The translations under genes and the position numbers were made by a program. Below are positions 6,513-35,160 of a DNA stretch of 64,000 bases, in pieces. The stretch covers positions 6,477-70,476 of the forward strand of contig JAGAQI010000075.1 of the NCBI GenBank assembly GCA_017622795.1. The letters are read 5' to 3'. Each line of letters starts with the position of its first letter. The stretch's first letter is position 1. Below the pieces are notes generated by a model. The model was not told where the DNA came from. It did not search any database and saw only the letters and a program-made list of their open reading frames with translations. The DNA comes from Lachnospiraceae bacterium (lineage in GTDB: Bacteria > Bacillota > Clostridia > Lachnospirales > Lachnospiraceae).

Positions 6513-6526
6513 GTCTTCTTTTTTTT
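6497..6526 (+). terminator. Intrinsic terminator
   Basis: GAAGACCT (6497-6504) / AGGTCTTC (6511-6518) followed by T8. Confidence 0.7.
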
Positions 6527-6552
6527 AGTGTTTTTTTAACAAAATGGAAAAA

Positions 6553-6596
6553 TTATGCTGGCGGCACAAGAATTTCTGAAATAATTGCTTTAATAT
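6553..6596 (+). promoter_or_regulatory. Degenerate copy of the island palindrome box plus -10 (TAATAT)
   Basis: TTATGCTG-G-CGGCACAA (2 mismatches in the right arm) at 6553-6569; TAATAT at 6591-6596, the same 21-nt gap as the seven strong copies. Confidence 0.4.
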
Positions 6597-6654
6597 AAAT
6601 ATGTGGCATATCTGAGCAGATGGCCATGGGAGAAAAGAACGAGGTGTGCACTGC

Positions 6655-7113: not shown

Positions 7114-7160
7114 TTAAGAAATTAATTATAAATATACTTATTTAGAGAAGGAGAAAGAAA

Positions 7161-7346
7161 ATGATTTTACTATTAATTATCTATTGGATTGCCGGTTATT
7201 GGGCATATGGAGTTGTATTTTATGAAGGAAAGATTGTTATGGCAAGACAAGGGCAGATTTTTGCAACAAAATTAGTGCAGGGACTTGTTTTTGGTTGGTT
7301 ATGGATTCCGGTGGCACTCGTAAAGAAAATTTTTGGAATAAGATAA
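7161..7346 (+). CDS. Small two-TM membrane protein
   Basis: 61 aa; RBS GAAGGAGAAAG; two hydrophobic segments. Confidence 0.5.
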   Translation: MILLLIIYWIAGYWAYGVVFYEGKIVMARQGQIFATKLVQGLVFGWLWIPVALVKKIFGIR

Positions 7347-7371
7347 AGAAAAAATAAGGAGATTTTTAGAA

Positions 7372-8220
7372 ATGTGTAAAAGGTGTGAGTTGTGCCATTC
7401 AACTGATGCATATGAAACGAGGTTCGGTATTCAGCTTTGTATGGATTGTATGGATGGTTTTTGGAAAATAATGAAAAATGATACGATTGCAATACAAAAG
7501 TATGCGAAGGAAGAAATGTTTCCAAATGCAACGATGAATGCAAAACAGCAGATTGTTGGTTTAGCAAAGAGAAAGCTGGATGAAGGTCTTGAAAAGCTGG
7601 AACCCAGACATGTTGAAAAAATCGAACCATTACATATGGAGAAAGTTGAGACAAGAAATAAGATGACTACGGAAGACACTAAAGAAAATACTAAAGAAAA
7701 TATAAAACCACAGCAAGGAATTACTTTAACTTCCCCGGAGAGCTTGGACGATTTGTCTGCAAAGTGCAATATTATTTATGTGATTGGCATAATTGTGATG
7801 GCGCTTTTCTTTGGGAATATTATTCTCGGCATAATTTTTGGGCTGGTTGCAGGGTGGATTATAAAAGGACCGATGATATTAAAATCCGCAACCTATAAAT
7901 TTAGGACAATGGAATTTTTAATGCCTGCAAATATTACTCTTGAGGAAATATACAGGGAAATTTCCCCAAAGTTAAATTCACAGGAGCTGGATGTTACTTT
8001 ACAAGAAAATAATTTGGAGTTTCATCATGGTTCTATTCACTATCAGTTTTTGACGGACGGAACGGAAGGTACATTCCGGCTGAGATGGTATTATTCGGTG
8101 GCAAAAGCTATGCTTGGCTCAAGAGATATCCATGACTATAAGGTAGTAAGACAGGATACAGGTCTCATTGCGTATGCGATTCAGAATGTGTCGGTGGAAA
8201 ACGGAGATACGGTAAAATAA
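7372..8220 (+). CDS. Zinc-ribbon / TM / C-terminal domain protein, function unknown
   Basis: 282 aa; N-terminal CxxC...CxxC (CKRCELC...CMDC); TM IIYVIGIIVMALFFGNIILGIIFGLVAGWII; RBS AAGGAGA. Confidence 0.6.
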   Translation: MCKRCELCHSTDAYETRFGIQLCMDCMDGFWKIMKNDTIAIQKYAKEEMFPNATMNAKQQIVGLAKRKLDEGLEKLEPRHVEKIEPLHMEKVETRNKMTTEDTKENTKENIKPQQGITLTSPESLDDLSAKCNIIYVIGIIVMALFFGNIILGIIFGLVAGWIIKGPMILKSATYKFRTMEFLMPANITLEEIYREISPKLNSQELDVTLQENNLEFHHGSIHYQFLTDGTEGTFRLRWYYSVAKAMLGSRDIHDYKVVRQDTGLIAYAIQNVSVENGDTVK

Positions 8221-8300
8221 AAAAGCACCGGTACCATATTATTGTTTGAAGGTATCGGTTTTGATGCTACGAAATCAGTGATGGTTAACTAAATTATTTA

Positions 8301-8375
8301 TCATAATAAGAAAACTCGTCAAGGATGCGGATTCGTCCTGCTTTTCAGCAAGTCCTTGACGAGTTTTTATTATGA
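8301..8375 (+). terminator. Long composite hairpin, probable terminator
   Basis: TCATAATAAGAAAACTCGTCAAGGA (8301-8325) pairs with TCCTTGACGAGTTTTTATTATGA (8353-8375); 27-nt interior with small hairpins. Confidence 0.6.
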
Positions 8376-8446
8376 TATCCTGAACTTTGATTCCTCCCCA
8401 ACTTTCCGTATGTCTGATTATGATGTGGAGTATCTTTTTTGTGAAA

Positions 8447-8490
8447 TTATGCTGACAGCATAAGAAAAATAAATTAGAAAGTTTTATAAT
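8447..8490 (+). promoter_or_regulatory. Island palindrome box TTATGCTG-A-CAGCATAA plus -10 TATAAT
   Basis: Perfect 8+1+8 dyad at 8447-8463; TATAAT at 8485-8490 after a 21-nt gap; no -35 hexamer; 74 nt upstream of the 8564 start. Confidence 0.6.
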
Positions 8491-8563
8491 AGGATTGCAG
8501 CAAGCCCTCGGGCTTTATCGAACGGGTAAAAGCTGGTAGATAGTAAAGACATAGGAGGAAAAC

Positions 8564-9553
8564 ATGAAAAAGAATATTATTTGCATTATTTTGTTATCAA
8601 TGGTTTGTATGATGGCTGGCTGCCAGTCCAAGGAGGAAAAGGCTTATAAGACTTTAGATAAGGTTGAAGAGCTGACGGCAGAGGGAAAATATGAGGATGC
8701 CCTTAAAAAGCTTGATAAAATCCGGGAAGTAATTGACGTGGAGGATGCAGAGGAAGAAGTACTGTTGGAACGTAAGTATGCAAAGATTCCGGAGGGGGAT
8801 CTTACGGAAAAGGTTCAGGCAGACATAGAATTGGTTGGGGCTACTGACGAAGAACTGATAGGCTTTGACATTTCCTCTGTTACAGAAATTATTACAGACA
8901 GGGATACCATTGAGGATTATCTGGATTCCTATTTTTATGGGGATTGGTATAAGGAAGGTAAAAATAAGTCAATTGAATTTAACGAGTGGGAACTTGACGA
9001 GGAACAATATGGTGTATCCTATATGTTCCGTGTGTCAAATGAATACATAGATAACATTGTTGTAAAAATGTATGAAATGGGTAAGGCTGACAAAGTTTTT
9101 TGCGTTATGCTGGGCAGTTATTATCTGGGGCAGTTACTTGATGGTTACGCGAGCTACTATGAAATTTCTGTTGTGGATTCGAAAGGGAATGTGGAATCAT
9201 ACAGAGATCTTTCCAAGGATGACTTTGAGGAATTAGAGGCAGAGGTTGCCATGGTTTCTGACATGGCCATGATAGAGGAAGAAATTGTTGAAACCACCCA
9301 TGATTCTTTTCTGGAACGGAAAAAAGGAGAGTTTTCCAATATTTTGGATACGGCGTTTGTTTCTTCCGAAATCGTAGATTATTCCGTTACATATTCGGAA
9401 GGAAGCATTATTTGTAGCATGAAAGTGAAATATTATGAGAATAAGTATTCTGCTTTATGGGGTGGAAATTCGCAGATTTTCTACGTAACAGGAACATTTA
9501 ATTACAATAAAAGTACCGGTACCGCATCATTAGTTTCTTTGAATGTGGAGTAA
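8564..9553 (+). CDS. Lipoprotein, function unknown
   Basis: 329 aa; signal peptide with lipobox MMAGC; RBS AGGAGG. Confidence 0.7.
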   Translation: MKKNIICIILLSMVCMMAGCQSKEEKAYKTLDKVEELTAEGKYEDALKKLDKIREVIDVEDAEEEVLLERKYAKIPEGDLTEKVQADIELVGATDEELIGFDISSVTEIITDRDTIEDYLDSYFYGDWYKEGKNKSIEFNEWELDEEQYGVSYMFRVSNEYIDNIVVKMYEMGKADKVFCVMLGSYYLGQLLDGYASYYEISVVDSKGNVESYRDLSKDDFEELEAEVAMVSDMAMIEEEIVETTHDSFLERKKGEFSNILDTAFVSSEIVDYSVTYSEGSIICSMKVKYYENKYSALWGGNSQIFYVTGTFNYNKSTGTASLVSLNVE

Positions 9554-9571
9554 GAAAAGGAGAAACAGAGG

Positions 9572-10198
9572 ATGGAGATTTTTTCGATTATATTGGGCAT
9601 TGTAGTGATACTTGTAATTATTGCATATATCTCGTCACAGATAAGAAAAAACCAGATGGATGAAGAAAGTAAGACAGATGAGAAAAGTGAAGAAGATGCA
9701 TTGTTTGAAGGCATCGATTTTGACGCAATGAAACCGGAAGAAGTTATTCCTTTAGAAGTGTATGAAGTAGAAGAGAATGTAATTACTGAAGAGGAACCGG
9801 TTCCCGGGGAACAGCAAGCTTCAACGCAAGAACCTCAAGCAGACGCTGCTCCTGCTAAACCGGTATTTGTTACAGATGCAGAAACAAGCAGCGGACAAAC
9901 GTATGAAAAGGTTCTTTCCACAGAAGATAAGAGGGAATGGATTGCAAATTTCGTTAGTATTAAGCGGTTTGTTGCTGCGGGTTGGACCTGCATGGGACTC
10001 GGTCTGGGATTCATTTTAGGGCGGCTTCTTGGCGATAATGTTGTCATGGTCTTGCTGATTATACTTGGAGGATTTATCGGGGGAGTATTCGGAACAAACT
10101 CTGTAGGCGCTGCCATGATGAAAGTTATTGCGGCAGAGCAAAGTATTTTAAATGAGGAACTGCTGAAAGAAATTTTAAAACGGTTGGAGGAAAAGTAA
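9572..10198 (+). CDS. Membrane protein with acidic linker and C-terminal glycine-zipper TM pair
   Basis: 208 aa; N-terminal TM; acidic stretch; GLGLGFILGRLLG...LGGFIGGVFG glycine-zipper segments. Confidence 0.65.
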   Translation: MEIFSIILGIVVILVIIAYISSQIRKNQMDEESKTDEKSEEDALFEGIDFDAMKPEEVIPLEVYEVEENVITEEEPVPGEQQASTQEPQADAAPAKPVFVTDAETSSGQTYEKVLSTEDKREWIANFVSIKRFVAAGWTCMGLGLGFILGRLLGDNVVMVLLIILGGFIGGVFGTNSVGAAMMKVIAAEQSILNEELLKEILKRLEEK

Positions 10199-10374
10199 AA
10201 GGGTGAATGAAACGTTTGTATTAACAGGATGTGGAGAGTACACCCTTCAAGAGAATTCAAACAGTAGTGTGCTTAAAGCAAGCAACCGGAGAACAAATAG
10301 AAGATTTGCTTTTAGCCGCTAAAAAGGCAGGTGTAACAGCAACGGATTTGCAGAAACTTGGATTGGAATAATGC

Positions 10375-10411
10375 GAAAAGCATGTCGAGTTTAATCTGGC
10401 ATGCTTTTTTT
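10375..10411 (+). terminator. Intrinsic terminator
   Basis: AAAAGCATG (10376-10384) / CATGCTTTT (10400-10408) running into a T tract. Confidence 0.6.
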
Positions 10412-10425
10412 CAATATAACTTCTT

Positions 10426-10454
10426 TTGACTTTTATCGGAAATAGGTATATACT
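10426..10454 (+). promoter_or_regulatory. Sigma-A type promoter for the kinase 2 operon
   Basis: TTGACT (10426-10431), 17-nt spacer, TATACT (10449-10454). Confidence 0.6.
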
Positions 10455-10484
10455 ATACGTAGATTTTTAAAGGTGGGGAAACCT

Positions 10485-12221
10485 ATGGGATTCGAGTATA
10501 TTACGTTGGAGACATTAAAGAAATCGGATAAAGCCATTATCGAAGTTGCCATGATGGATGACTATCCGGAAAGGGTAGTTGTAAAGCACTTAAAAGGTGT
10601 AAACATCAATTTGTTTCACCAGATATCTTTTTTACATAGTGTTTATATCCCAAAGATTTATAAATGCGAGTTGGATGGAGAATGGTTTGTTGTTATAGAA
10701 GAGTATCTGGAAGGTGAGAATCTGGAAAAATATTTGCGCGAACACCGCCTTACGGATAAGCAGAAATTGGATATTGCCCTGCAATTATGTGAGGCAGTAA
10801 AGTGTCTGCATGCGTTGCAACCGCCAATTATTCACCGTGATATTAAACCGCATAATATTATTGTTAACGAACATGGAGCATTAAAATTAATAGATTTTGA
10901 TGCTTCCCGCTATTATAGAGAAGATGATAACCGTCAGGACACCCGTCTCCTTGGTACTCCGGAATATGCACCGCCGGAACAATACGGCTATTCCCAGACA
11001 GACGTCCGCAGCGATATCTATTCTATGGGTATGGTATTTAAGGAATTGAATCTGACGGAAAAGAAGTTTCTTGTTTCCGAATGGGAAAAAATGGTTGGCA
11101 AGTGCAGAAATTTTGACCCGAAGCATCGGTACCAGACTGTGGATGAGCTGGAAAAAGAAATTAAGAAAATGGCGTTCTTACGCACGATTACCGGAAAAAC
11201 AGTGCTTGGCTGGACAGCAGCCGTTTTACTGTTATTGATAGTATTGTGGCAAGGCTGTATGCTTACCCGCAATAATGATGCAGGTGCAAGTAATCAAAAT
11301 GAAGTAACCGGTATGCCAACTCCAACGGAGGTTGTGCAGGAATCAGTAACACTGGAGCCGAAAGCAACAAGTACACCTGTGCCAACGGAAACACCAACAC
11401 AAGCGGTTGAACCAACTGCAGAACCAACGGCAACAAATACGCCTGTGCCGACAGAAACGCCAACGCCTGTGCCGACGGAAATGCCGGCGAGTGTAAATTC
11501 GCTGATTCCGGGAGTAGAAACAGTAGAAGAATTGGATGCATATTTTGCAAGTACGAATTTATATGTGTACAATTTTTATCGAAGCATTGCAGAACAAACA
11601 AAATTTTATATCGGTGTGGATAGTTTACTTGATACAAGCTGGAAATTTGATAAAATTACCTTTACAAATTATGAAACCGGGGTGGAAGTAGAGGTTCCGG
11701 CTTCGATGATAGATTTGGAAAGCGAAATCATATCGGTATCTAATGATTTTTTATTGGGGCTGGAAGATACCTATTACCAAGTAATAATATATATAACAAA
11801 TGGTGAGAGTTCACTTCCAGCCATGAGTACGGTAGTTAAAGTTTCCGAAGCTGTGGATGAAACAGGACATATACGTGCATTAGGGCGTGACTGGGTAACA
11901 TTCTATGCGCAGTATCCGACAGATATTATTATCACTTCAAACAGCGAGAATGTTTTGAAGATGGAAAAGCTTTATATTTGCCAAAGTGGTATTTATCCGG
12001 ATGGTATCCCTGAGATTTTGGATGCGGAAATATTAACTGAAGTTAATCCGGCTAATTATGAAATCATGGATGCCGGAAAAATGATGAAGCTTAGTAAAGA
12101 ACTTTTAGCAGGTTATTCTAATGAAAGCCGGGTGATTTTTGCTGCACTATGCAATGATGGAAATTATTGGCGGATTGTAGTAGAATATGATAACGGAAAG
12201 CCATACTGGATGCCACAATAA
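10485..12221 (+). CDS. Atypical membrane Ser/Thr protein kinase with extracytoplasmic C-terminal domain (paralog 2)
   Basis: ATG 10485 behind RBS AAAGGTGGGG (the track starts at GTG 10473); HRDIKPHNII, LIDFDASR, EYAPPEQ; TM; Pro/Thr linker; kinase domain clearly paralogous to 4438-6075, C-terminal domain divergent. Confidence 0.8.
   Translation: MGFEYITLETLKKSDKAIIEVAMMDDYPERVVVKHLKGVNINLFHQISFLHSVYIPKIYKCELDGEWFVVIEEYLEGENLEKYLREHRLTDKQKLDIALQLCEAVKCLHALQPPIIHRDIKPHNIIVNEHGALKLIDFDASRYYREDDNRQDTRLLGTPEYAPPEQYGYSQTDVRSDIYSMGMVFKELNLTEKKFLVSEWEKMVGKCRNFDPKHRYQTVDELEKEIKKMAFLRTITGKTVLGWTAAVLLLLIVLWQGCMLTRNNDAGASNQNEVTGMPTPTEVVQESVTLEPKATSTPVPTETPTQAVEPTAEPTATNTPVPTETPTPVPTEMPASVNSLIPGVETVEELDAYFASTNLYVYNFYRSIAEQTKFYIGVDSLLDTSWKFDKITFTNYETGVEVEVPASMIDLESEIISVSNDFLLGLEDTYYQVIIYITNGESSLPAMSTVVKVSEAVDETGHIRALGRDWVTFYAQYPTDIIITSNSENVLKMEKLYICQSGIYPDGIPEILDAEILTEVNPANYEIMDAGKMMKLSKELLAGYSNESRVIFAALCNDGNYWRIVVEYDNGKPYWMPQ
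11313..11486 (+). repeat. In-frame Pro/Thr-rich linker, low complexity
   Basis: Encodes PTPTEVVQESVTLEPKATSTPVPTETPTQAVEPTAEPTATNTPVPTETPTPVPTE with reiterated cctgtgccgac(a/g)gaaa units. Confidence 0.75.
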
Positions 12222-12241
12222 ATTACATCGGAGGAATATTT

Positions 12242-12697
12242 ATGGGAATCAAAGACGAAAAACCAACGGTACTCATGGATTCTGAAATGACAAAGCTCAG
12301 AAATGAAAATGATTTGGATAAGTTTCTGGAAGAGAATGATGACAATATGTTTACTCTTCGGGTAAGGGACTTTCTGATGAAGATGATGGTTCAGTATGAT
12401 ATGGATAAAAAGGATATCATTCCACGTTCCGGCCTAGCTACCTCTTATGCTCATAATATATTCAATGGCGATAAAGGGGACAAAGCAAAATACGGCAGAG
12501 ATAAGCTGATTATGTTGGCAATTGGTTTTCCTCTTACTTTGGAAGAAACCAATAAACTGTTGAAATATGGCGGACATAGTCCGTTGTATTCCAAGAACAG
12601 ACGGGATGCTATTATAATGTTTGCCATCGGGAAGCAATATTCTTATATAAAAACCAATGAGTGTTTGGATGAGCACGGGGAAGAACCGTTAGTGTAA
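12242..12697 (+). CDS. Small XRE-like HTH protein (paralog 3), downstream partner of kinase 2
   Basis: 151 aa; RBS GGAGGAA; SYAHNIFNGDKGDKAKYGRDKLIMLAIGFPLTLEETNKLLKYGG aligns with the paralogs. Confidence 0.65.
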   Translation: MGIKDEKPTVLMDSEMTKLRNENDLDKFLEENDDNMFTLRVRDFLMKMMVQYDMDKKDIIPRSGLATSYAHNIFNGDKGDKAKYGRDKLIMLAIGFPLTLEETNKLLKYGGHSPLYSKNRRDAIIMFAIGKQYSYIKTNECLDEHGEEPLV

Positions 12698-12712
12698 AAT
12701 AAGTAAAATGAA

Positions 12713-12753
12713 GAGAACAAGTAGTGTTTTTAAATACTGCTTGTTCTTTTTTT
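12713..12753 (+). terminator. Intrinsic terminator
   Basis: AGAACAAGTAGT / ACTGCTTGTTCT stem followed by T7. Confidence 0.7.
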
Positions 12754-12769
12754 GTGCAAAGAAACAGGT

Positions 12770-12813
12770 TTATGCTGCCAGCATAACAAGTGGGGTAGGA
12801 AAAGAAGTAAACT
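12770..12813 (+). promoter_or_regulatory. Island palindrome box TTATGCTG-C-CAGCATAA plus -10 TAAACT
   Basis: Perfect dyad at 12770-12786; TAAACT at 12808-12813 after a 21-nt gap. Confidence 0.55.
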
Positions 12814-12870
12814 AAAGTTGCAAAATCAAACAAAGCAGAGCTTTCTTAAAAGTAAAGGAGGATCAATATT

Positions 12871-13026
12871 ATGACTATAGTGATGGAATTAAGAAAATGT
12901 ACTGCATGCGGAAAAAAATATAGCTTTAATCCTGCTATAGGACATTTTAACTGTCCACATTGCAGAGGTTTAGGAAAAATCAAAAAGGGGCCGAAGAGAA
13001 AACCCAAGAAGGGAGGAATTTTCTGA
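12871..13026 (+). CDS. 51-aa zinc-ribbon microprotein with basic tail
   Basis: Absent from the ORF track (under 60 aa); RBS AAGGAGGA 7 nt upstream; MTIVMELRKCTACGKKYSFNPAIGHFNCPHCRGLGKIKKGPKRKPKKGGIF has CxxC...CxxC. Confidence 0.5.
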   Translation: MTIVMELRKCTACGKKYSFNPAIGHFNCPHCRGLGKIKKGPKRKPKKGGIF

Positions 13027-13241
13027 TGCAGGAAACCTATAAGAGAGTTGAACTGCTAAAAAAATCTTTGGCAAATGCACTATCTTTAGAAGCCACTAAT
13101 CAAATGCTACGTTTGGGTGGTGAACCGGAATTGTATTCGAAAAACAGACGGGATGCAATTTGTATGTTTTGCATAAATCTGCAGATGGGATTGGAAAAGT
13201 GCAACGAATTGCTGGAGCGGTACGATGAGGTGACACTGTAA
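13026..13241 (+). CDS. Truncated paralog of the island HTH family (C-terminal half only)
   Basis: ATG 13026 overlaps the upstream TGA (TGATG); LSLEATNQMLRLGGEPELYSKNRRDAICMFCI matches the C-terminal half of the paralogs; recognition-helix region absent. Confidence 0.5.
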   Translation: MQETYKRVELLKKSLANALSLEATNQMLRLGGEPELYSKNRRDAICMFCINLQMGLEKCNELLERYDEVTL

Positions 13242-13401
13242 GAGAACTAAATATTGGAAAACTTGGCAGAAACTATGGATGTCAAGCTTGTTGTTTTTAC
13301 AAATGAAATAGGAATATACAACAATTGTGAGGAAATGGATGCTCGGACAGTTGGTGCGTCCGAAAAGAAACTCTTTAAACTATTCCGTTGGTTAGGTAGT
13401 T

Positions 13402-13445
13402 TTATGCCGGCAGCATAACAAAATGGACGTGAAGTGAGGTAAGCT
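13402..13445 (+). promoter_or_regulatory. Island palindrome box TTATGCCG-G-CAGCATAA plus weak -10 TAAGCT
   Basis: Dyad with one mismatch at 13402-13418; TAAGCT at 13440-13445 after a 21-nt gap. Confidence 0.45.
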
Positions 13446-13485
13446 GAAATTACAAAGAAACCATTGTAGTGAAGGAGGAACGAAC

Positions 13486-13719
13486 ATGAGCTTAGAAAAC
13501 AAAATAATTGATTATGCAATCAGTCATTATTATGAAATGCCAAAAACAATTCAAAAGAAAATGGTAACGGAAGGAAAGAAGTATATTGAGAGAGAGCATC
13601 CGATTGCAAGTATGTTTATGCCGGATTCGACCAAAGAGAAATGTGTGAAAAGTTATTTTAATTCAAAAGCAAACTGCACATCAATTGGGACTTGTTTTAG
13701 CAAATGTATTAGCGTATAG
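13486..13719 (+). CDS. Hypothetical 77-aa protein
   Basis: RBS GAAGGAGGAA; no recognisable motif; Cys/Ser/Thr-rich C-terminus NCTSIGTCFSKCISV. Confidence 0.5.
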   Translation: MSLENKIIDYAISHYYEMPKTIQKKMVTEGKKYIEREHPIASMFMPDSTKEKCVKSYFNSKANCTSIGTCFSKCISV

Positions 13720-13741
13720 ACGCGGAAAGAGAGGAAATATC

Positions 13742-14128
13742 ATGACTACAGAAAAAGAATTAGCAAACGCTATCGAGAGAAATGAAAATGAAATCGTAAT
13801 TGAAGGCGACTTAAGTAACAAGGTAATTCGAATTAAGGCCACCGGAGCTGTAGCCTGGGGCGCCTGTATTATAGGACTCGGCGCAGTGGTTGCTCTTGGA
13901 ATTGCCACCGCAGGAAGCGGAGGAACAGCTACTCTGATTACGCTACCGGCAATGGGCGCTGCGTTAATGACTACTGCTCCGGTTGCAGTTGCCAGCATGG
14001 GTCTTCCAGCAGCGGTTTCTGCAGTGGGAATTGCTATGGCAGGCGGTGGTTGCGGTGTATTGAATAAGCTCAGGGATTACAAGCTGGTTAAGGTAAGCAA
14101 GGATAAAGTGATTCTTTACCGGAAGTAA
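13742..14128 (+). CDS. Gly/Ala-rich membrane protein (glycine-zipper type)
   Basis: ATG 13742 behind GAGAGGAAA (the track starts earlier, at 13685); soluble N-terminus TEKELANAIERNENEIVIEGDL, then a long Gly/Ala hydrophobic region, then a basic tail. Confidence 0.6.
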   Translation: MTTEKELANAIERNENEIVIEGDLSNKVIRIKATGAVAWGACIIGLGAVVALGIATAGSGGTATLITLPAMGAALMTTAPVAVASMGLPAAVSAVGIAMAGGGCGVLNKLRDYKLVKVSKDKVILYRK

Positions 14129-14129
14129 T

Positions 14130-14173
14130 TTATGCTACCAGCATAACAAACATAAAGCTACAACATATATAAT
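14130..14173 (+). promoter_or_regulatory. Island palindrome box TTATGCTA-C-CAGCATAA plus -10 TATAAT
   Basis: Dyad with one mismatch at 14130-14146, starting 2 nt after the upstream stop codon; TATAAT at 14168-14173 after a 21-nt gap. Confidence 0.6.
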
Positions 14174-14236
14174 TACAAATGTAAACAACAGACAAGTAAG
14201 TCTGAAAACGAATTTAATCCATAGGAGGAAAATGAA

Positions 14237-15205
14237 ATGAAAAAAGATTTTTATGAAGCATTAGAACAAGACATCGTAGGTTTAGGACTAGCAGAAGAGG
14301 AAAAGAGTAAGTTGTTAAAGCATATTATGCAGCTGAAGGCTCAGAAACTGAATATCATGGTAGTCGGAGGAACCGGCTGTGGTAAGAGTTCCACTATCAA
14401 CGCATTATTTGATGCTCCGGTTGCCAAAGTAGGAGAACGTCCGGATCCGGAAACCATGACGATTGAAAAGTATGAATTAGACAACCTGATTTTGTGGGAC
14501 ACACCGGGACTTGGTGATGGTAAAGAAGCCGACAAAAAGCATGCAAAAAACATTATTGACAAGCTTGTTGAAAAGGATAGCGATGGTAAGGCACTAATCG
14601 ATTTGGTATTAGTAATTCTCGATGGTTCCAGTAGAGACATGGGAACGTCCTTTGAGTTAATTAACAATGTGATCATTCCTAATTTAGGCGAAGAGCAAAA
14701 GGAAAGAATTCTGGTTGCTATCAACAAAGCTGATATGGCTAAGCCAAGACATTGGGATTACAACAAAAATGAACCGGATGAGATTCTGAAAGAGTTTCTG
14801 GAAGAGAAAATCAAGTCCGTGAAAAAGAGAATCAAGGAATCTACCGGCGTTGATGTAAATCCGATTTATTATTGCGCAGGCGATATGGATGATGGTGAGC
14901 AGCGCAAGGCATACAATCTGACAAAGCTCTTATGTTGGATGATTAAGGCAACTCCAACAGAAAAAAGAATTGTTTATGCAAATAATATGAATCAACAGCC
15001 TGAAATATGGGTAGATGACGATGAAATCATGGACTATGGTCAGGAAATCAGAAAAGATATCTGGGGCTCTGTTACAGAGGGTGCAGGTGTTGGCGGTGCC
15101 ATTGGTGAAGCAATCGGAACTATTTTCCATTGTGGACCGATAGGAAGAGCTGTCGGCACGGCAGTTGGTGCTGTAGTAGGATTCTTCTGTGGTATCTTTG
15201 GTTAA
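14237..15205 (+). CDS. Small P-loop GTPase (MMR_HSR1/YfjP-like) with C-terminal glycine-zipper tail (paralog 1)
   Basis: 322 aa; G1 GGTGCGKSS, G3 WDTPGLGD, G4 NKAD; C-terminal GAGVGGAIGEAIGTIF...GRAVGTAVGAVVGFFCGIFG. Confidence 0.8.
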   Translation: MKKDFYEALEQDIVGLGLAEEEKSKLLKHIMQLKAQKLNIMVVGGTGCGKSSTINALFDAPVAKVGERPDPETMTIEKYELDNLILWDTPGLGDGKEADKKHAKNIIDKLVEKDSDGKALIDLVLVILDGSSRDMGTSFELINNVIIPNLGEEQKERILVAINKADMAKPRHWDYNKNEPDEILKEFLEEKIKSVKKRIKESTGVDVNPIYYCAGDMDDGEQRKAYNLTKLLCWMIKATPTEKRIVYANNMNQQPEIWVDDDEIMDYGQEIRKDIWGSVTEGAGVGGAIGEAIGTIFHCGPIGRAVGTAVGAVVGFFCGIFG

Positions 15206-15213
15206 TAGAGTTG

Positions 15214-15255
15214 GAAGCCCAAGCGTGATTTGTACCGTTTGGGCTTCTCTTAATA
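15214..15255 (+). terminator. Probable terminator
   Basis: GAAGCCCAAGCG / CGTTTGGGCTTC stem; weak T tract (TCTTAATAAT). Confidence 0.55.
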
Positions 15256-15265
15256 ATAAACAACT

Positions 15266-15309
15266 TTATGCTGCCAGCATAACAAACCATGGTAAAAACA
15301 AGTTATAAT
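15266..15309 (+). promoter_or_regulatory. Island palindrome box TTATGCTG-C-CAGCATAA plus -10 TATAAT
   Basis: Perfect dyad at 15266-15282; TATAAT at 15304-15309 after a 21-nt gap. Confidence 0.6.
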
Positions 15310-15354
15310 AAAATTACAAAATAACACAAAACAAATCCAAAGGGGGTAAATAAT

Positions 15355-15591
15355 ATGTTTTTTGATTTTATTTCTGATTTAGTAATTGGCGCCTGTGATC
15401 TGGGATTTAAGCTGGATAGTGCTATATTTGGTGATTCTTCTGCTGATGCCGATGCACTTATGAAAGTGATTTTAAATGCGACTCAGAATGAAGAGGCAGA
15501 GGATACATACGTAGAAGCTGACGTTAAGTCCGCGGACGGAACAAGTACGATAGCTACAAGTATTGAAGGCATTAAAAAACACGTTTATTAA
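15355..15591 (+). CDS. Small hydrophobic-acidic protein with conserved KHVY C-terminal tail (paralog 1)
   Basis: 78 aa; RBS AAGGGGG; hydrophobic N-terminus, acidic middle, C-terminus IATSIEGIKKHVY matching 17262-17474. Confidence 0.6.
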   Translation: MFFDFISDLVIGACDLGFKLDSAIFGDSSADADALMKVILNATQNEEAEDTYVEADVKSADGTSTIATSIEGIKKHVY

Positions 15592-15617
15592 TAGGAACCG
15601 TTAAGGAGGAAAAAGAG

Positions 15618-16322
15618 ATGAAGAGAAATATTATGTTAGTCGGAGGAACCGGCTATGGTAAAAGTTCTACAATCAATGCATTGTGTAATACTCCGGTGGC
15701 AGCGGTAGCGGCTCTTGAAGAACCGGAAACAAAAGAAATCAGGAAGTATGAAACGGATAACATGGTTCTTTGGGACACACCGGGAATCGGTAGCAGTGTA
15801 GAAGAAGACAGTAAAAATATAGAGGCTTTAAAAAGTATGCTTCGTGAAAAAGACGAAGCAGGAAATCTGTTAATTGCTCAGGTGGTGCTTGTGATGGATG
15901 CCGGAAGCAGAGATATGGGGACTTCTTTTGAACTGCTCAATGACGTAATTGTTCCAAACTTAGGTGACAACCGTAAAGACAGAATTTTAGTGGCTTTAAA
16001 CCGTTGCGATGCAGTAAAGCCTAGAAACTGGAACTATGAAGCAAATGAGCCGGATGAAGTACTTAAGCAATTTCTAGAGGAAAAGGCAGAATCTGTAAAA
16101 ACAAGAATTTCAGAGTCTATCGGTATAGATGTTGAAGTTATTTATTACTGTGCCGGCGAGACAGAGAATGACGAACAGAGTCCGGCTTATAATTTGGATA
16201 AACTGGTTGCTAAGCTGATGGAGGTGACAACAACTGAGAGTGTGGTGGCTGAAAGAAACATCACTGTACAAAAGAAGGAATCTTTTATCAAGAGAATGAT
16301 CCGCAGACTTTTTGGTCGCTAA
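15618..16322 (+). CDS. Small P-loop GTPase (paralog 2)
   Basis: 234 aa; G1 GGTGYGKSS, G3 WDTPGIG, G4 variant NRCD; basic amphipathic C-terminus KESFIKRMIRRLFGR; RBS AAGGAGGA. Confidence 0.8.
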   Translation: MKRNIMLVGGTGYGKSSTINALCNTPVAAVAALEEPETKEIRKYETDNMVLWDTPGIGSSVEEDSKNIEALKSMLREKDEAGNLLIAQVVLVMDAGSRDMGTSFELLNDVIVPNLGDNRKDRILVALNRCDAVKPRNWNYEANEPDEVLKQFLEEKAESVKTRISESIGIDVEVIYYCAGETENDEQSPAYNLDKLVAKLMEVTTTESVVAERNITVQKKESFIKRMIRRLFGR

Positions 16323-16330
16323 TTCATAAT

Positions 16331-16369
16331 GAGGCAGACAGTATAAGCTGTTTGCCTCTCCTTCTTTTA
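16331..16369 (+). terminator. Intrinsic terminator
   Basis: GAGGCAGACAG / CTGTTTGCCTC stem followed by TCCTTCTTTTAT. Confidence 0.65.
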
Positions 16370-16387
16370 TGGCGAAAAGAACTGATA

Positions 16388-16431
16388 TTATGCTGTCAGC
16401 ATAACAATATGAGTTACAAAAGATCTATACT
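16388..16431 (+). promoter_or_regulatory. Island palindrome box TTATGCTG-T-CAGCATAA plus -10 TATACT
   Basis: Perfect dyad at 16388-16404; TATACT at 16426-16431 after a 21-nt gap. Confidence 0.6.
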
Positions 16432-16477
16432 TAAGATACAAGATAACAAATGAATTGTTACATAAGAGGAGGTAAAT

Positions 16478-17161
16478 ATGAATAGCGTATATAGACAAAA
16501 TGATATTGAAAGAAATGCCAAGAGAGCAGGGTTTTACCCAATGGATATTGTGGTAGTCGGAGGAACCGGAGCCGGAAAATCATCTACAATGAATGCACTT
16601 TTTGAGAAGGAAGTAGCGAAGGTAGGACACGGATGTGACCCGGAAACCAGCAAGAACAGTCATAAAGAATTGAACCAGTATTTACGTTTCTGGGATACAC
16701 CGGGATTCGGAGACAGCGTGGAAAAGGATAAAAAATATGCAAAGGACTTAATTAAGCTGCTAAATGAGTCCTGGACGGATAATGGAAGAACAATATATGG
16801 TGCAATCGATATGGTTATCGTTATTTTGGATGGTTCTGGTAGGGATATGGGAACCACCTATAAAATTTTGAATGAGGTAGTGCTTCCAAACTTCCCAAGT
16901 GATCGGATTTTGATGGCAATCAACCAGGCAGATGCAGCAAAGAGTCCAAAGCATTGGAATAATCAAAAAAATGAACCGGATGAAGTGTTGAAGAGCTTTT
17001 TAGAAGAAAAAGCAATTTCTGTAAAACGGAGAATTGAAGAAGCCACTGGAACCAGAGTATGTAAGCCGGTGTACTATTCAGCAGAAAAGGAATATAACGT
17101 TGAAAAATTATTAGATATGATAATTGATAATATGCCAACTTCGAGAAGAAAGATACAATAA
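16478..17161 (+). CDS. Small P-loop GTPase (paralog 3)
   Basis: 227 aa; G1 GGTGAGKSS, G3 WDTPGFGD, G4 variant NQAD; shares the DMGT..(L/I)N.V..PN and NEPDE(I/V)LK.FLEEK blocks with paralogs 1 and 2. Confidence 0.8.
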   Translation: MNSVYRQNDIERNAKRAGFYPMDIVVVGGTGAGKSSTMNALFEKEVAKVGHGCDPETSKNSHKELNQYLRFWDTPGFGDSVEKDKKYAKDLIKLLNESWTDNGRTIYGAIDMVIVILDGSGRDMGTTYKILNEVVLPNFPSDRILMAINQADAAKSPKHWNNQKNEPDEVLKSFLEEKAISVKRRIEEATGTRVCKPVYYSAEKEYNVEKLLDMIIDNMPTSRRKIQ

Positions 17162-17164
17162 AGT

Positions 17165-17208
17165 TTATGCTGTCAGCATAACAATTGAACGGAGAAAAGA
17201 AATATAAT
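17165..17208 (+). promoter_or_regulatory. Island palindrome box TTATGCTG-T-CAGCATAA plus -10 TATAAT
   Basis: Perfect dyad at 17165-17181, starting 4 nt after the GTPase 3 stop; TATAAT at 17203-17208 after a 21-nt gap. Confidence 0.6.
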
Positions 17209-17261
17209 TAAATCATAAAGAAACACAAAAAAGAAAAAAGATGTTTAAGGGAGCAAAAAAA

Positions 17262-17474
17262 ATGGCATTAGGTTTATTAACTAGTTTAGCATTAGGAGCA
17301 GTAGGGTTGGTCAGTGCAGGAGCAATTGTTACAAACAGTTCCGGTGGTTCTGTTTATTACGGTTCTACTTATGAGGATAACGATGAAGAATGGGATGATG
17401 AGTGGGAAGATGAAGATGAGGAAATCACAGAGGTGGCTACCAGTATTAGAGGCATCAGCAAGCATGTGTATTAA
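17262..17474 (+). CDS. Small hydrophobic-acidic protein with conserved KHVY C-terminal tail (paralog 2)
   Basis: ATG 17262 behind AAGGGAG (the track starts at 17241); hydrophobic N-terminus MALGLLTSLALGAVGLVSAGAIV, acidic run EDNDEEWDDEWEDEDEE, C-terminus VATSIRGISKHVY. Confidence 0.6.
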   Translation: MALGLLTSLALGAVGLVSAGAIVTNSSGGSVYYGSTYEDNDEEWDDEWEDEDEEITEVATSIRGISKHVY

Positions 17475-17691: not shown

Positions 17692-18042
17692 ATGATCTTA
17701 GGAAACTTATTAAAAGCAGTTAGCAGTACGGTAGGCACTGGAATTTCTCTGAAGAATGCAACAAAGAGTGCTCCGAACTCTATGGGATGTTACAAAATTT
17801 ACTACCATGGCTTAAAGTATGTTGGAAAATCAGAGGATGGCATCCGAAAGCGTTTTGTGCAGTATTACAATGGTACAACAGCGCATTATCCGTCTGCTAA
17901 AAAGATTTACCAGCATCGGAATGAGATTACGGTAACCTGGCAGGTGTGCAACAGCCGTGAAGAGACCCGTGCCCTGGAGGCAAAGTGGATTAGGCAGTAT
18001 GATCCGGAATGGAACGACAGAAGGGGATGGGAAAGTGATTAA
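17692..18042 (+). CDS. Stand-alone GIY-YIG domain protein
   Basis: 116 aa; GCYKIYY...LKYVGKS (GIY...YIG-like), conserved Arg in IRKRF, Glu in ALEAKWI, Asn in EWND. Confidence 0.6.
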   Translation: MILGNLLKAVSSTVGTGISLKNATKSAPNSMGCYKIYYHGLKYVGKSEDGIRKRFVQYYNGTTAHYPSAKKIYQHRNEITVTWQVCNSREETRALEAKWIRQYDPEWNDRRGWESD

Positions 18043-18117
18043 AGTGTCGGTCAAGAACAGAATAGGGAACAAGTTTCTTGAAATTTAATACATTTGTAAA
18101 AATCTTTTTCTTGAGAT

Positions 18118-18158
18118 AAACCTGGTTTTAGTATATACTTAAACTAGGTTTTTCTTTC
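18118..18158 (+). terminator. Intrinsic terminator
   Basis: AAACCTGGTTT (18118-18128) / AAACTAGGTTT (18141-18151) followed by TTTCTTTC. Confidence 0.65.
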
Positions 18159-18162
18159 ATTT

Positions 18163-18284
18163 GCGGGTATAAGCAAAGGTCAGACGGAAGAAATTTGTAA
18201 GAAATATATTTCATTACAAATTTTCTTCGACAGACCGCGCAACGCGACTGAGAGAGCATTAGCTCTCGAAGTGCTTATACACGC
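18163..18284 (+). other. Nested inverted repeat predicting a three-way-junction structure in the sbcD upstream region
   Basis: Outer GCGGGTATAAGCA (18163-18175) / TGCTTATACACGC (18272-18284); long arm 18178-18200 / 18214-18236; side hairpin GAGAGC-atta-GCTCTC (18252-18267). Confidence 0.5.
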
Positions 18285-18317
18285 AAAATATACAACATAC
18301 CCTTAGGAGAGCATCCC

Positions 18318-19496: not shown

Positions 19497-22400
19497 ATGA
19501 AACCGACATACTTGGAACTTTGTGCATTTGGTCCTTTTGCAGGACAGGTGATTTTACCGCTGGAACGAATTGTTTCAGAGGGTGTGTTTTTGGTGCACGG
19601 AGCAACCGGTGCCGGTAAAACTACTATTTTCGATGCAGTTTCCTTTGCTTTGTTTGGCAACGCCAGCGGTGAAAATCGTCCGGCGGATTCCTTCCGTTCC
19701 GACTTTGCCAAAGAAGACAGCAAAACCTATGTGATTTTAGAATTTACCCATAACGGACAGAACTATAAAATCGAAAGAAGTCCTGCATACCGTCGTCCGA
19801 AGCAGCGGGGAGAAGGTTTTACGGACAGCAAGGCGGAGGCTGTGCTTATCTTGCCAAATGGCATGAAGGTAGTCGGATATCAGATGGTAACAGATAAAGT
19901 GGAAGAAATTCTTTCGGTAGACTGGAAGCAGTTTAAGCAGATTTCCATGATTGCCCAGGGGGAATTTTTGCGTTTACTTACGGTGGAAAGTAAAGAACGT
20001 GGTGAGATTTTCCGCAAAGTATTTCACACGGGTAATTTAAGCCGTATCGGTAAAGAATTAAAGGAGCAGATGCTGAAGGTTAAGCGTTTTTGCGACGAAT
20101 TGGATAAATCTATTGTACAATATTACTGCGGCATCGATAATTCTGCTGACAGTGTATATAAAGCGCAGATTGAAGAATTTTTTGTAAGCAAAGATATTCA
20201 TAAAACAGAGGAATTTCAGAAAATTTTGGAAGAGCTTATCAGGGCAGATGGGGCAGAACTCAAGCATACGAAAGAACGGTTGGAAGTAATTGAGCAAAGA
20301 CTGACAGAGTTAAAGGTTAAAGAATCCAAAGCGGCAGAATGGATAGAAAAAAAGCAGGAATTTTCCCGACTTTCCGAACAGCTTCCGGACATGTTGGCCC
20401 TGGAGCAGAAAAACAAAATTGACAAGCAGCGTCTTGCTCTTGTGAAGCGTGCCATGACGGCAGTACGTCCGCAGAAAGAAGCCTATTTGGCAGCGAGAGA
20501 AGAAAGCGAACAATTGCTTAGAAGTATTGCGGAAAAAGAAAAGCAGATGGCAGAACTCCGTGCGTTGGAAGAGCATGTTACTTTGTCATACCAGAAAGCT
20601 CAGGCAGATAAAATCAATATGGAGCAGTTACTGCGCCGAATAGAGCAATTGCGTAGTGAGGTAAAGCTTCTTGCGCAAAAGGAAGAATTGGAAGAGGAAT
20701 TCCGGCAGCTGGAGCAGTCTGCAGCAGAATTGTTAGAGCTGGAAAGCACTAAGAAATTGCTTATGAAAGAAAAAGAATCTCGATTCAAGGAGTGCCGGGC
20801 AAAGCAGGACAAGCTTACGGAAATTTATCAGTCAGGACGTGCCCTGGAAGCAGAAGAAAGAGAGTTAAAGCATACGCTTGAAGAACTTGAAAATCAGGAA
20901 AAACGTTTTGAAAGTTTTGAAAAAATCAGAATTAATTATGAGAATTTAACAGCACAGATTTCAGAACTGCTGGAGGAAAAACAAAGGCAGAATGCAGTGC
21001 TGCAAAAGCTGGAGGCAGCTTATACTTATGAGCAGGCCGGCATGCTTGCTATGGATTTGGAAGCGGGCAGTCCGTGTCCGGTATGCGGTTCCACAGATCA
21101 TCCGGATCCTGCAAAGCCGGCTGGTGGCGTTGTGTCCAGAGAAGAACTGGCAACACGCAAACAGGAATATCAGGAAATCAGCGGAAAACTAGAGGAACTT
21201 GGTAAAGAAGCGGCATCAGAAAAAGGCACCATGGAATTATTACTGCAGCAGTTAGGTATCCGTGGCGATATTTCCCAGGTTCAGCAGCTGATTGCAGAAC
21301 GTATGGAGCAAAAAGAAAAAGTGAAGGAAACGCTTTCCGAAGTGGAGAAGCAGCTGGACGAGCTGGTAAAACAGCAGGAAGAAGGTATGAAGGCAAGGGA
21401 AGAAGCTTCTGTGTTGGAGCAGGAACTTTCAACGCTGAAAAAAGATCTGGATGCCCTGCAGGAAAAAACTCTTCGCATCCGTTCGGAACAGGAGGCAATT
21501 AATCAGTCGGTCAAGAGAATTCTTTTGGATGCTTCTTTTGAAAGTGTGGCAGCGGCGTCAGCGGCTCTGGAAGCTGCAGAAGCAGAGCAGGCAATGAAGA
21601 AAGATGCCATTGCGTTGGCAGAAAAAAATTATCAGGATTGGAATAACAGAAAACAGAGTGAAAGCGCAGTATTGGAACAGTTGTCCGGTCAGAAACTGAT
21701 GCGTATGCAAAAGGAGCAGTACGCACTGGAAGACTATGAAAAGGCTATTCGTATGGCGGGCTTTGATAATGAAGCGGACTTTGAAAAAAATGTACTTTCA
21801 GAGGAAGAACTGCAGAATCTGGAAGAAGCAACATTAGAAAACGAAAGTTCGGTAATACGGTTCAGGGAGCGGTATGCCCTGTTGGAGCAGGAACTGCAAA
21901 AAGCAGCTCCGGATTTAGATTCTGACTATGAAGAAAAAGTGGGAGCATTGACTGAAGAAAAAGATTTCCTCAGCCATCAGATAACCAGAGTGACTGCCCG
22001 TGCAGAAACAAACGGAAAAGTCCGTAAAAATGTGGAAACCCAGTTGGCAATCCGCAGCAACATGCAGAAGGAATACAGTAATGTGGCAGTACTTAGTGAT
22101 GTGGCAAACGGGGAACTGTCCGGAAAAGATCGTCTTCCGTTTGAACAGTATGTGCAGGCGTTCTACTTTGAGCAGGTAATTTACGAAGCGAATCTTCGTC
22201 TGAAAAAGATGAGTGGCGGCAGATATGCCTTAAAGCGTCGTGCGGAGGCTGAAAACAAAAGAAGTGTAACCGGTCTTGATTTGGAAATCATGGATTATTT
22301 TACCGGAAAGGCAAGAAGTGTAAAATCTTTATCCGGCGGCGAATCTTTTAAGGCAGCATTGTCTCTGGCTCTGGGGTTATCAGATGTGATTCAGGGGTAT

Positions 22401-35144: not shown

Positions 35145-35160
35145 GCAAAGGAGTAATAGT

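Follow-up and report, generated by a model that had tools for sequence, protein, structure and literature searches.

The stretch analysed here, 64,000 nucleotides of contig JAGAQI010000075.1 from a Lachnospiraceae bacterium (hereafter the window), carries at 13486-17474 a cluster of three paralogous P-loop GTPase genes interleaved with genes for small membrane and acidic proteins. On the grounds of sequence and modelled fold, we assign the three GTPases to an uncharacterised, horizontally mobile TRAFAC family, YfjP-like and nearest in fold to Toc34, IRG and GIMAP proteins, whose conserved core in other genomes is formed by a long GTPase paired with a short one. Because the promoter box that precedes the units of the cluster tracks a family of small XRE-like proteins encoded beside receptor kinases, the cluster represents the cargo end of a kinase/XRE regulon of about 13 kb (4438-17474), all of whose features described below lie on the + strand. 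We hold this anatomical and regulatory part with considerable confidence. A function of the cluster in conflict or membrane protection, which is suggested by genomic context, has at best an even chance, and for the composite explanation, joining family, regulation and membrane or conflict function, the chances seem to us equally divided.

All open reading frames (ORFs) that an initial annotation, made from the letters alone, had listed for the cluster were recovered with their coordinates unchanged. GTPase 1 (14237-15205; 322 aa) is of a "long" type, in which an N-terminal helical pair is followed by the G domain, C-terminal helices and a hydrophobic glycine-zipper tail. GTPase 2 (15618-16322; 234 aa) is closest to this long type, having lost the N-terminal helices and exchanged the glycine zipper for a basic amphipathic tail, with which the protein ends (KKESFIKRMIRRLFGR). 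GTPase 3 (16478-17161; 227 aa) has no tail and represents a "short", soluble type, orthologous to the second gene of the conserved pair. The three share 54-55% pairwise identity, intact G1 (GGTGxGKSST), G3 (WDTPG) and G4 (NKAD/NRCD/NQAD) motifs, and two family blocks, RDMGT..(L/I)N.V..PN and NEPDE(I/V)LKxFLEEK. The tail of GTPase 1 spans about 45 residues, Gly-rich and hydrophobic (Kyte-Doolittle 1.69 at residues 302-320), with visible GxxxG/A repeats that are kept across 17 homologs. Its scores against the glycine-zipper profiles PF13488, PF13441 and PF05433 (20.0, 16.5 and 14.7 bits) all stay under the cutoffs of 24-29 bits, the match to Pfam Gly-zipper_Omp reaching 20 bits against a cutoff of 25.

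The initial annotation had likened the shared core to MMR_HSR1-type TRAFAC GTPases, and profile searches agree with it. With the G1, G3 and G4 motifs intact, the three proteins score 45.7, 40.8 and 36.4 bits against Pfam MMR_HSR1 (PF01926; gathering cutoff 21.9; E 1e-9 to 1e-12). They also exceed the cutoff of IIGP and, at 35.0, 29.1 and 33.7 bits, that of AIG1 (PF04548; cutoff 27), although these scores lie below those for MMR_HSR1 and the GTPase 3 match covers residues 23-95 only. The guessed relationship to Escherichia coli YfjP was borne out as a distant homology (BLASTP 28% identity, E 3e-13; hhalign probability 98.2%, E 4e-14), the hhalign alignment extending over 208 columns that comprise the N-terminal helices and the G domain. 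A profile search against PDB sequences gave septin, GIMAP4, EngB, IRG and Toc34 as top matches. Likewise, an AlphaFold2 (AF2) model of GTPase 1 (predicted TM-score, pTM, 0.77; tail disordered) found Toc34/Toc33, Irgb6/Irga6/GM4951, GIMAP7/2/5, mitofusin and the Campylobacter dynamin-like protein (DLP) pair at the top of its Foldseek list, with GIMAP structures at TM 0.3-0.5. GTPase 1 is also matched over its full length by phrog_16468 (E 4.5e-72). At 50% identity the family falls into about 280 clusters with E<=1e-30, and its thousands of sequences come mainly from Lachnospiraceae and further gut Clostridia. Searches of the literature for YfjP/YeeP/YkfA, for GTPases with a glycine zipper and anti-phage activity, and for WYL with GTPase and LRAT returned no description of the family; for the function of YfjP, YeeP and YkfA they gave gene lists only, and we found no paper.

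Databases name the homologs "50S ribosome-binding GTPase", which would make them housekeeping GTPases of ribosome assembly or translation. The name stems from Pfam MMR_HSR1, and weak partial matches to YlqF, EngB and Era are indeed present. However, no equivalog among Era, Der/EngA, YlqF, YqeH, YsxC/EngB, HflX, MnmE and HydF reaches its NCBIfam cutoff: the equivalogs score about 20-39 bits (best 37-39) against cutoffs of 100-440, so that the placement in Era, Der or YqeH that the initial annotation had named as fatal to its proposal did not materialise. The proteins contain no KH or other RNA-binding domains, and their hydrophobic tails, the three paralogs and the patchy distribution also speak against a ribosomal role. 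Housekeeping GTPases would be expected in conserved synteny and near-universal single copy; here neighbourhoods differ in almost every locus, copies are found on plasmids, and one genome (locus L023) holds a separate true Era gene (19848-20759) besides the pair. The NCBIfam cutoffs and the genomic context effectively refute the housekeeping reading, to which we attach a negligible probability.

In other genomes the recurring unit consists of a long GTPase (326-334 aa, with the glycine-zipper tail), orthologous to GTPase 1, followed by a short one (226-237 aa), orthologous to GTPase 3. The two genes are adjacent in L001-L003, L005-L007, L013, L015 and L020-L027, with a spacing of 2-13 nt or an overlap, and GTPase 3 shares 57-64% identity with the short partners in L001-L007. 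Short and long types are also found fused in single polypeptides (P0003, P0005 and P0011), of which P0003 keeps the glycine-zipper tail and the other two end before it. Such natural fusions, as Rosetta-stone evidence, indicate that the two types work together. Within the window, the paralogs sit in separate transcription units. In this lineage the pair, represented by GTPase 1 and GTPase 3, has been joined by a third paralog, GTPase 2, and the genes are split into units with promoters of their own, interleaved with lineage-specific small membrane and acidic proteins. Paralog expansion outside Firmicutes is seen in a Succinimonas sp. metagenome-assembled genome, a gammaproteobacterium (L019, 6866-11682), where five family GTPases stand in tandem with a small Gly/Ala-rich membrane protein of cluster C4 upstream.

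The distribution of the family includes mobile DNA. Proteobacterial plasmids carry members at 45-58% identity, among them the complete pair on Comamonas (pC11-unnamed5) and Acinetobacter baumannii plasmids (57-58%) and a lone copy, with AlpA, RadC and DUF2787 as neighbours, on a conjugative plasmid of Proteus. In the cryptic prophage CP4-57 of E. coli K-12 (L029), YfjP (7711-8574), which ends in a hydrophobic tail (…VRSSVVSVARAVWDFFF), follows immediately after rnlAB, near abpAB, and lies upstream of DUF932 and antirestriction genes. The GTPases might then serve mobile elements, in establishment, exclusion or anti-defence, with the window copies as domesticated or hitch-hiking cargo. The mobilizable and conjugative plasmids on which relatives reside near insertion sequences, toxin-antitoxin modules, AlpA, RadC and DUF2787 would suit such a role, as would the company of YfjP, the PHROG families matched by GTPase 1 and by the Gly/Ala-rich protein of the cluster, and the pair in L003, which follows a run of ORFs resembling by eye a phage lysis-type cassette. 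Nevertheless, a tblastn search of 50,697 phage genomes gave no family match and IMG/VR a single contig; thus, despite the PHROG entries, the family is not a typical phage gene. The copies in the window and in L020-L025 sit on chromosomes, without an integrase, relaxase or phage gene in their vicinity, and the cluster is wired to host-type receptor kinases. We therefore regard a function on behalf of mobile elements as improbable.

The neighbourhoods of the family vary, yet genes of defence type recur among them. In a type III CRISPR-Cas locus of Blautia stercoris (L020-L022, 10001-11687) the pair separates cas1-cas2 from the cas10/RAMP genes and has a WYL/WCX regulator beside it, and in Eubacterium sp. 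(L001 and L023-L025, 10001-11702) it directly follows a type III locus composed of RAMP, cas6, cas1-cas2 and an array-like stretch. A second subfamily, 43-50% identical, has a single long GTPase and occurs in a cassette with a WYL/WCX regulator, a 56-aa Zn-ribbon protein, the glycine-zipper GTPase itself and an LRAT/NlpC-P60-like enzyme (Pfam LRAT E 1e-24). The latter follows the GTPase in five loci (L009, L011, L012, L014 and L016; about 8500-11900 in each), often with a NERD-helicase upstream of the cassette, which looks like a candidate defence operon and has no counterpart in PADLOC. Overall, ten WYL regulators lie within 8 kb of family GTPases, in 9 of 21 non-redundant loci, and Cas, CARF, HerA and RT-NERD-helicase matches are found near them too. 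The RnlAB and AbpAB neighbours of E. coli yfjP are likewise anti-phage genes. The initial annotation had suggested a GTPase-gated membrane-remodelling, stress or abortive-infection module. A conflict or membrane role fits the type III CRISPR loci, the WYL regulators, the plasmids and an edge of a prophage-like region near family members; the analysis yielded no direct evidence of abortive infection or membrane perturbation.

The regulation of the cluster centres on a promoter box, a perfect 17-nt palindrome (TTATGCTGnCAGCATAA). Eight good copies with 0-2 mismatches, all on the + strand, lie between 6553 and 17181, against 0.37 expected by chance, and none of 100 shuffles of the 64-kb window equalled this count. 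Six of them fall within 12770-17181, namely boxes 3 (12770-12786, exact), 4 (13402-13418, 1 mismatch), 5 (14130-14146, 1 mismatch), 6 (15266-15282, exact), 7 (16388-16404, exact) and 8 (17165-17181, exact, beginning 4 nt past the GTPase 3 stop). The other two are box 1 (6553-6569, 2 mismatches), upstream of the XRE-fold gene HTHb, at a position that is also boxed in the relatives L030-L035, and box 2 (8447-8463, exact). A ninth match at 23253, with 3 mismatches, is probably due to chance. The shared box reported by the initial annotation is real and stands upstream of the cluster units, but its scope had been drawn too small, given that it also precedes the genes at 6646, 8564, 12871 and 13486; what had been missed is that it marks a regulon of eight promoters with its own kinase and XRE-like regulators.

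At all eight boxes a -10-like hexamer, TAnAnT, begins exactly 21 nt downstream of the palindrome (TATAAT at 15304-15309 for box 6). These promoters show no -35 hexamer and no extended -10, and a simple sigma-70 scan picked up none of them. The palindrome is centred at about -42, a geometry from which we infer the position of a class II activator site. Most of the eight promoters also share a leader, A(A/T)TACAAA(G/A)(A/T)AAC, within the 20-25 nt after the -10 (e.g., 15310-15331 and 17209-17230), which may represent a second conserved element or a common origin of the promoter cassettes. Between the units, an intrinsic-terminator-like hairpin followed by a T-run was found by the terminator scan 3' of GTPase 2 (16331-16358), and a terminator-like hairpin 3' of GTPase 1 (15215-15247) was seen by eye and is absent from the scan output.

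Upstream of the cluster the regulon encodes two receptor Ser/Thr kinases of the same layout, with a Hanks-type domain, one transmembrane (TM) segment, a Pro/Thr-rich linker and an extracellular domain. Kinase 1 (4438-6075; Pfam Pkinase E 1e-29) and kinase 2 (10473-12221; E 6e-29) clear the 31.7-bit cutoff at 104 and 102 bits, are 35% identical over their full length, and both keep the VxxK, HRDIKxxN and APE motifs, with DFD replacing DFG. Each is followed by a gene for a small XRE-fold protein: the stop of kinase 1 overlaps the start of HTHa (6075-6512; 145 aa), which is translationally coupled to it and is our candidate box binder, and HTHc (12242-12697; 151 aa, 46% identical to HTHa) begins 20 nt after kinase 2. 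A further paralog, HTHb (6646-7113; 155 aa), is 42% identical to HTHa. These belong to a family of 3207 proteins. The AF2 model of the XRE-like protein (predicted local distance difference test, pLDDT, 92) shows the five-helix XRE fold, and nearly all of its top Foldseek matches are XRE helix-turn-helix (HTH) domains (DdrO, 434 Cro, C.AhdI, C.Esp1396I, CapH and HipB), with root-mean-square deviations of 1.8-3 A over 52-70 residues and TMt values of 0.65-0.78.

The link between box and regulator comes from their co-occurrence. Two or three boxes are present in each of the six loci reached via close XRE-like relatives, ahead of either a paralog or variable cargo genes; the 29 loci obtained in other ways contain no box. 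A scan of metagenomes for the exact palindrome returned mostly single chance sites and became informative after filtering for an XRE-like gene. In this set, 17 of 120 stretches encode a family member at 31-38% identity, mostly less than 100 nt from the box. A Pkinase gene is present as well in 13 of these 17, often oriented divergently from the regulator gene around the box. Conversely, the exact box has no match in the 19 genome loci found via the GTPases, and so it goes with the lineage of the regulator rather than with the GTPases. We regard kinase, XRE-like protein and palindrome as one conserved regulatory module, with a dimer of the XRE-like protein most likely occupying the palindrome. 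The module recurs twice in the window (4438-6512 and 10473-12697) and in loci L030-L035 and L049-L155; a literature search on Hanks kinases and XRE proteins found no description of it.

Restriction-modification (R-M) controller proteins and other small XRE regulators (C.AhdI, C.Esp1396I, 434 Cro, DdrO and CapH) offer the nearest parallel, having the same small XRE fold and a palindrome over the -35 region. As with controller proteins, boxes precede both a paralog of the regulator itself and cargo genes. The XRE-like protein differs from them in measuring about 145 aa, with helices added at both ends and no Pfam HTH match, in the coupling of its genes to Hanks-type receptor kinases instead of a protease or an R-M system, and in serving eight promoters. 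In the proposed scheme, an extracellular or envelope cue would act through a receptor kinase on the XRE-like activator, whose dimer, seated at about -42, would activate the -35-less promoters as R-M controller proteins do at C-boxes and so induce the eight units jointly; the truncated paralog HTHd, described below, may damp the response. Three almost invariant residues of HTHa, Thr10, Thr97 and Thr143, would be candidate phosphorylation sites.

For the proteins so induced, we propose that the GTPases assemble in a nucleotide-dependent manner into hetero-dimers or oligomers at the cytoplasmic membrane, to which GTPase 1 and GTPase 2 would be held by their tails, and that they remodel, seal or perturb this membrane, as a miniature, stalk-less analogue of DynA and of LeoA/LeoBC (Eleos). 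The setting would most likely be conflict with phages or mobile elements, or envelope damage. Precedents exist for several of these steps: bacterial DLP genes are mostly paired in operons (PMC6104087), a two-gene dynamin-like defence operon requires both P-loops (bioRxiv 10.1101/2022.05.11.491447), phage defence by DynA requires membrane binding (PMC12998192), and Eleos has been linked to GIMAPs (bioRxiv 10.1101/2022.12.12.520048). Like Eleos (LeoA and LeoBC), DynA and Campylobacter DLP1/DLP2, the family places two different TRAFAC GTPase genes side by side, as seen in the relatives of the window cluster, and at times fuses them (cf. DynA and LeoBC); one partner has a hydrophobic membrane element, and both defence islands and mobile elements are among the locations. 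The PADLOC profiles LeoA and LeoBC match the G domain (residues 12-108 at profile positions 31-131 of 559, and residues 21-109 at positions 58-150 of 601, respectively), the tail of GTPase 1 weakly matches LeoB (E 5.8e-4), and, as noted above, a Campylobacter DLP is in the Foldseek list. In contrast to Eleos and the DLPs, the proteins measure 227-334 aa instead of about 550-1200 aa and lack both the helical neck/trunk (stalk) and the paddle, the profile matches extend over about 100 residues around the P-loop instead of the full length, and the cluster is not detected as Eleos. PADLOC "mad8" matches are weak and serve as a lead only, as the MADS preprint has no definition of mad8 and the profiles were built from PDB homologs.

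The best structural and PDB profile matches, together with AIG1 and IIGP above their Pfam cutoffs, tie the fold to Toc34/Toc159, GIMAP/AIG1 and IRG (p47) proteins, which likewise have a small G domain extended by helices at its N- and C-terminal ends, are anchored to the membrane by the C-terminus and occur as paralogs clustered in tandem. The window proteins differ in being bacterial, in their identities of 14-22% and TM-scores of 0.4-0.5, and in having a glycine-zipper tail where those proteins have a single TM helix. The CP4-type cryptic-prophage GTPases YfjP, YeeP and YkfA of E. coli resemble them in length, in the hydrophobic C-terminal tail and, for YfjP, in a mobile location by anti-phage genes, but YfjP is 28% identical, has neither a short partner GTPase nor a glycine zipper, and is itself uncharacterised. 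Taken together, these comparisons lead us to infer that the cluster would be most like the paired bacterial dynamin-like systems (Eleos and DynA) in its working and like Toc/GIMAP/IRG in its fold, while falling outside Eleos and the bacterial dynamin-like proteins as these are defined.

A number of observations weigh against this explanation. On the side of the effectors, the GTPases have neither the helical stalk nor the paddle by which mechanical work is done in dynamin-like proteins, and no PADLOC system model fits the cluster. The tail of GTPase 1 is modelled at pLDDT <50 and is of marginal hydrophobicity, and for these reasons its integral insertion into the membrane is not established. 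The neighbours of the island are the housekeeping genes trpS, sbcCD, mutY and secDF and not recognised defence genes, and the association with defence elsewhere is qualitative, drawn from about 21 loci with shared ancestry and without a matched background control. On the side of regulation, both kinases have a degenerate glycine-rich loop in place of the canonical GxGxxG, and judging from their motifs catalytic competence is uncertain for both. The XRE-like proteins (6075, 6646 and 12242) have no Pfam, NCBIfam or PDB sequence match, HTH models included, and the Foldseek E-values of the model are weak (0.05-0.4). Finally, DNA binding and phosphorylation of the XRE-like proteins, and activation rather than repression, are conjectural steps of the scheme.

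The same regulon could also respond to envelope stress or repair membranes without any immune role, the kinases sensing damage to wall or membrane and the GTPases and small membrane proteins stabilising or resealing the bilayer. That most box-driven genes encode membrane or exported proteins, that the kinases carry extracellular domains and that the island is chromosomal, between housekeeping genes, all agree with this view, which overlaps in mechanism with the conflict explanation and is hard to separate from it by sequence alone. For a core stress function, however, the company of CRISPR loci and WYL regulators would be unusual, and the GTPase family is patchy and mobile, as illustrated by the 57-58% identity between Clostridia and the Comamonas and Acinetobacter plasmids. 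On balance we think it rather unlikely that envelope stress alone explains the regulon, and return to conflict or membrane protection as the preferred function.

Additional clues come from the small proteins and their conservation. Ahead of GTPase 1, the cluster encodes a 77-aa soluble protein (13486-13719) and a 128-aa Gly/Ala-rich membrane protein with two or three hydrophobic segments by hydropathy (13742-14128; phrog_25580, E 2.7e-9). Small protein A (15355-15591; 78 aa), in the GTPase 2 operon, has a hydrophobic/amphipathic N-terminus, an acidic linker and the C-terminal sequence ATSIEGIKKHVY, and small protein B (17262-17474; 70 aa) a TM-like or signal-like N-terminus (Kyte-Doolittle 2.09 at residues 1-24), an acidic linker and the C-terminal sequence ATSIRGISKHVY, the C-terminal motif ATSI(E/R)GI(K/S)KHVY being common to both. 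In a 5.2-kb contig of another organism (L036) we found all seven genes of the cluster in unchanged order, their products 74-88% identical, with six boxes at matching positions and the same spacing to the -10 hexamer. Ratios of nonsynonymous to synonymous substitution (dN/dS) between the two are 0.10-0.15 for the GTPases, 0.11 for the 77-aa and Gly/Ala-rich proteins (each 79% identical), and 0.24 and 0.34 for small proteins A and B, respectively; the acidic linkers of the latter differ by in-frame indels, with N-termini and C-terminal motif kept. Being conserved in L036 under purifying selection (dN/dS 0.11-0.34), the small ORFs are real genes. This answers both the doubt that the initial annotation had raised about their conservation and, since the whole cluster recurs, that about its occurrence in other genomes. 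The paralogs, tails and interleaved small ORFs are as it had described them, but the microproteins and the Gly/Ala-rich protein turn out to be lineage-specific and to lie outside the conserved core of the family: small proteins A and B form five clusters in 5.8 billion proteins, found only alongside this GTPase cluster.

The layout of the two small proteins calls for a further alternative. A hydrophobic N-terminus, a spacer and a C-terminal motif are also the parts of Gram-positive quorum-sensing pro-peptides, and the TATG...CATA half-sites of the palindrome resemble the PlcR box. In a peptide-signalling circuit, the small proteins would be exported pro-peptides whose conserved C-terminal 12-mer, once released, is sensed by the extracellular domains of the kinases, with positive feedback via the box and the GTPases as output. 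The variable acidic spacer between a hydrophobic N-terminus and an invariant C-terminal motif is in line with this, and both small genes are box-driven. Yet the pro-peptide gene of an RRNPP/PlcR-type system stands beside that of a tetratricopeptide repeat (TPR) receptor, and Pfam finds no TPR/RRNPP domain in any island protein, nor was a processing protease or exporter found among them. The N-terminus of small protein A is acidic and not signal-like (Kyte-Doolittle maximum 1.27), and the kinase/XRE/box module is widespread without the small proteins, confined as these are to five clusters. Such a circuit seems to us very unlikely. As for the origin of the small genes, a fission from longer family members is suggested only by a vague resemblance, seen by eye, between the KHVY proteins and the N-terminal extension of those members. 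The Gly/Ala-rich protein (13742-14128) was also considered as a relative of the cluster C4 membrane protein found upstream of GTPase pairs elsewhere and was rejected (hhalign probability 0.1%); Pfam has no match for the C4 protein.

Some GTPases of the Toc/GIMAP/IRG group are transcriptionally induced in immunity. In a bolder version of the preferred explanation, which we consider unlikely, the island would serve immunity at the membrane, as an inducible regulon under the control of receptor kinases: the kinases would sense phage attack or a breach of the envelope, the XRE-like activator would induce miniature GIMAP/IRG/dynamin-like GTPases with small membrane partners, which gather on the membrane and block or contain infection, and the long and short pair would constitute a new, widespread defence system. 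If true, bacteria would thereby possess an equivalent of interferon-inducible GTPase immunity. Were the pair to prove a defence or membrane-protection system, a function would be gained for a family mislabelled as "50S ribosome-binding GTPase", with E. coli yfjP, yeeP and ykfA among its members, and the pair would represent a stalk-less, minimal dynamin-/GIMAP-like immunity small enough for direct mechanistic work. The kinase, XRE-like protein and palindrome would in turn be a compact and undescribed means by which gut Clostridia couple Ser/Thr-kinase signalling to transcription, and a widespread one (>3000 proteins). The window offers eight easily assayed target promoters, YfjP is a ready genetic handle, and the plasmid-borne pairs make the family experimentally tractable.

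The remaining cargo of the regulon is also mostly membrane-associated. Between HTHb and kinase 2 there are a small 2-TM protein (7161-7346) and a Zn-ribbon and TM protein (7372-8220), both recognised as ORFs and by hydropathy, with no significant Pfam match. They are followed by a box-driven putative lipoprotein (8564-9553), its signal LSMVCMMAGC read by eye, and a box-driven membrane protein (9572-10198) identified by hydropathy. A 51-aa Zn-ribbon protein with a basic tail (12871-13026; weak Pfam Zn-ribbon matches) has tblastn homologs adjoining the GTPases in L006, L009, L011 and L016 (E 2e-4 to 2e-11). As the window homolog stands behind a box of its own, the regulon is thereby tied to the usual partners of the GTPase family. 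Co-transcribed with it behind the box is HTHd (13026-13241; 71 aa), a truncated XRE-family paralog that consists of the C-terminal half only, without the HTH core, and that could act as an anti-activator or feedback element.

The island has a G+C content of 37-40%, compared with mostly 43-46% in its flanks, and Rfam and tRNA scans of it gave nothing. In sister genomes, the same chromosomal site (uvrD/pcrA - trpS - HAD hydrolase) holds the module with other cargo, including a leucine-rich repeat protein, a Band_7 protein and DUF4230. Between the island and sbcD lies a gene for a stand-alone 116-aa GIY-YIG nuclease-domain protein (17692-18042; Pfam E 1.8e-7), at whose position L036 has, by eye, a metallo-beta-lactamase-fold-like gene. 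The adjacent intergenic region (18086-18290) is dense in inverted repeats, with a palindrome at 18114-18155 and further repeats at 18178-18236 and 18160-18287. Elsewhere in the window, ordinary T-box leaders precede trpS (2244-2506) and valS (38501-38742; Rfam 102 and 126 bits), a 1211-aa protein (22652-26287) joins a GH127 beta-L-arabinofuranosidase to a C-terminal GH25 lysozyme domain in an unusual fusion, and proteins with DUF5717 (1204 aa) and DUF5716 (410 aa) are encoded in tandem at 31530-36393.

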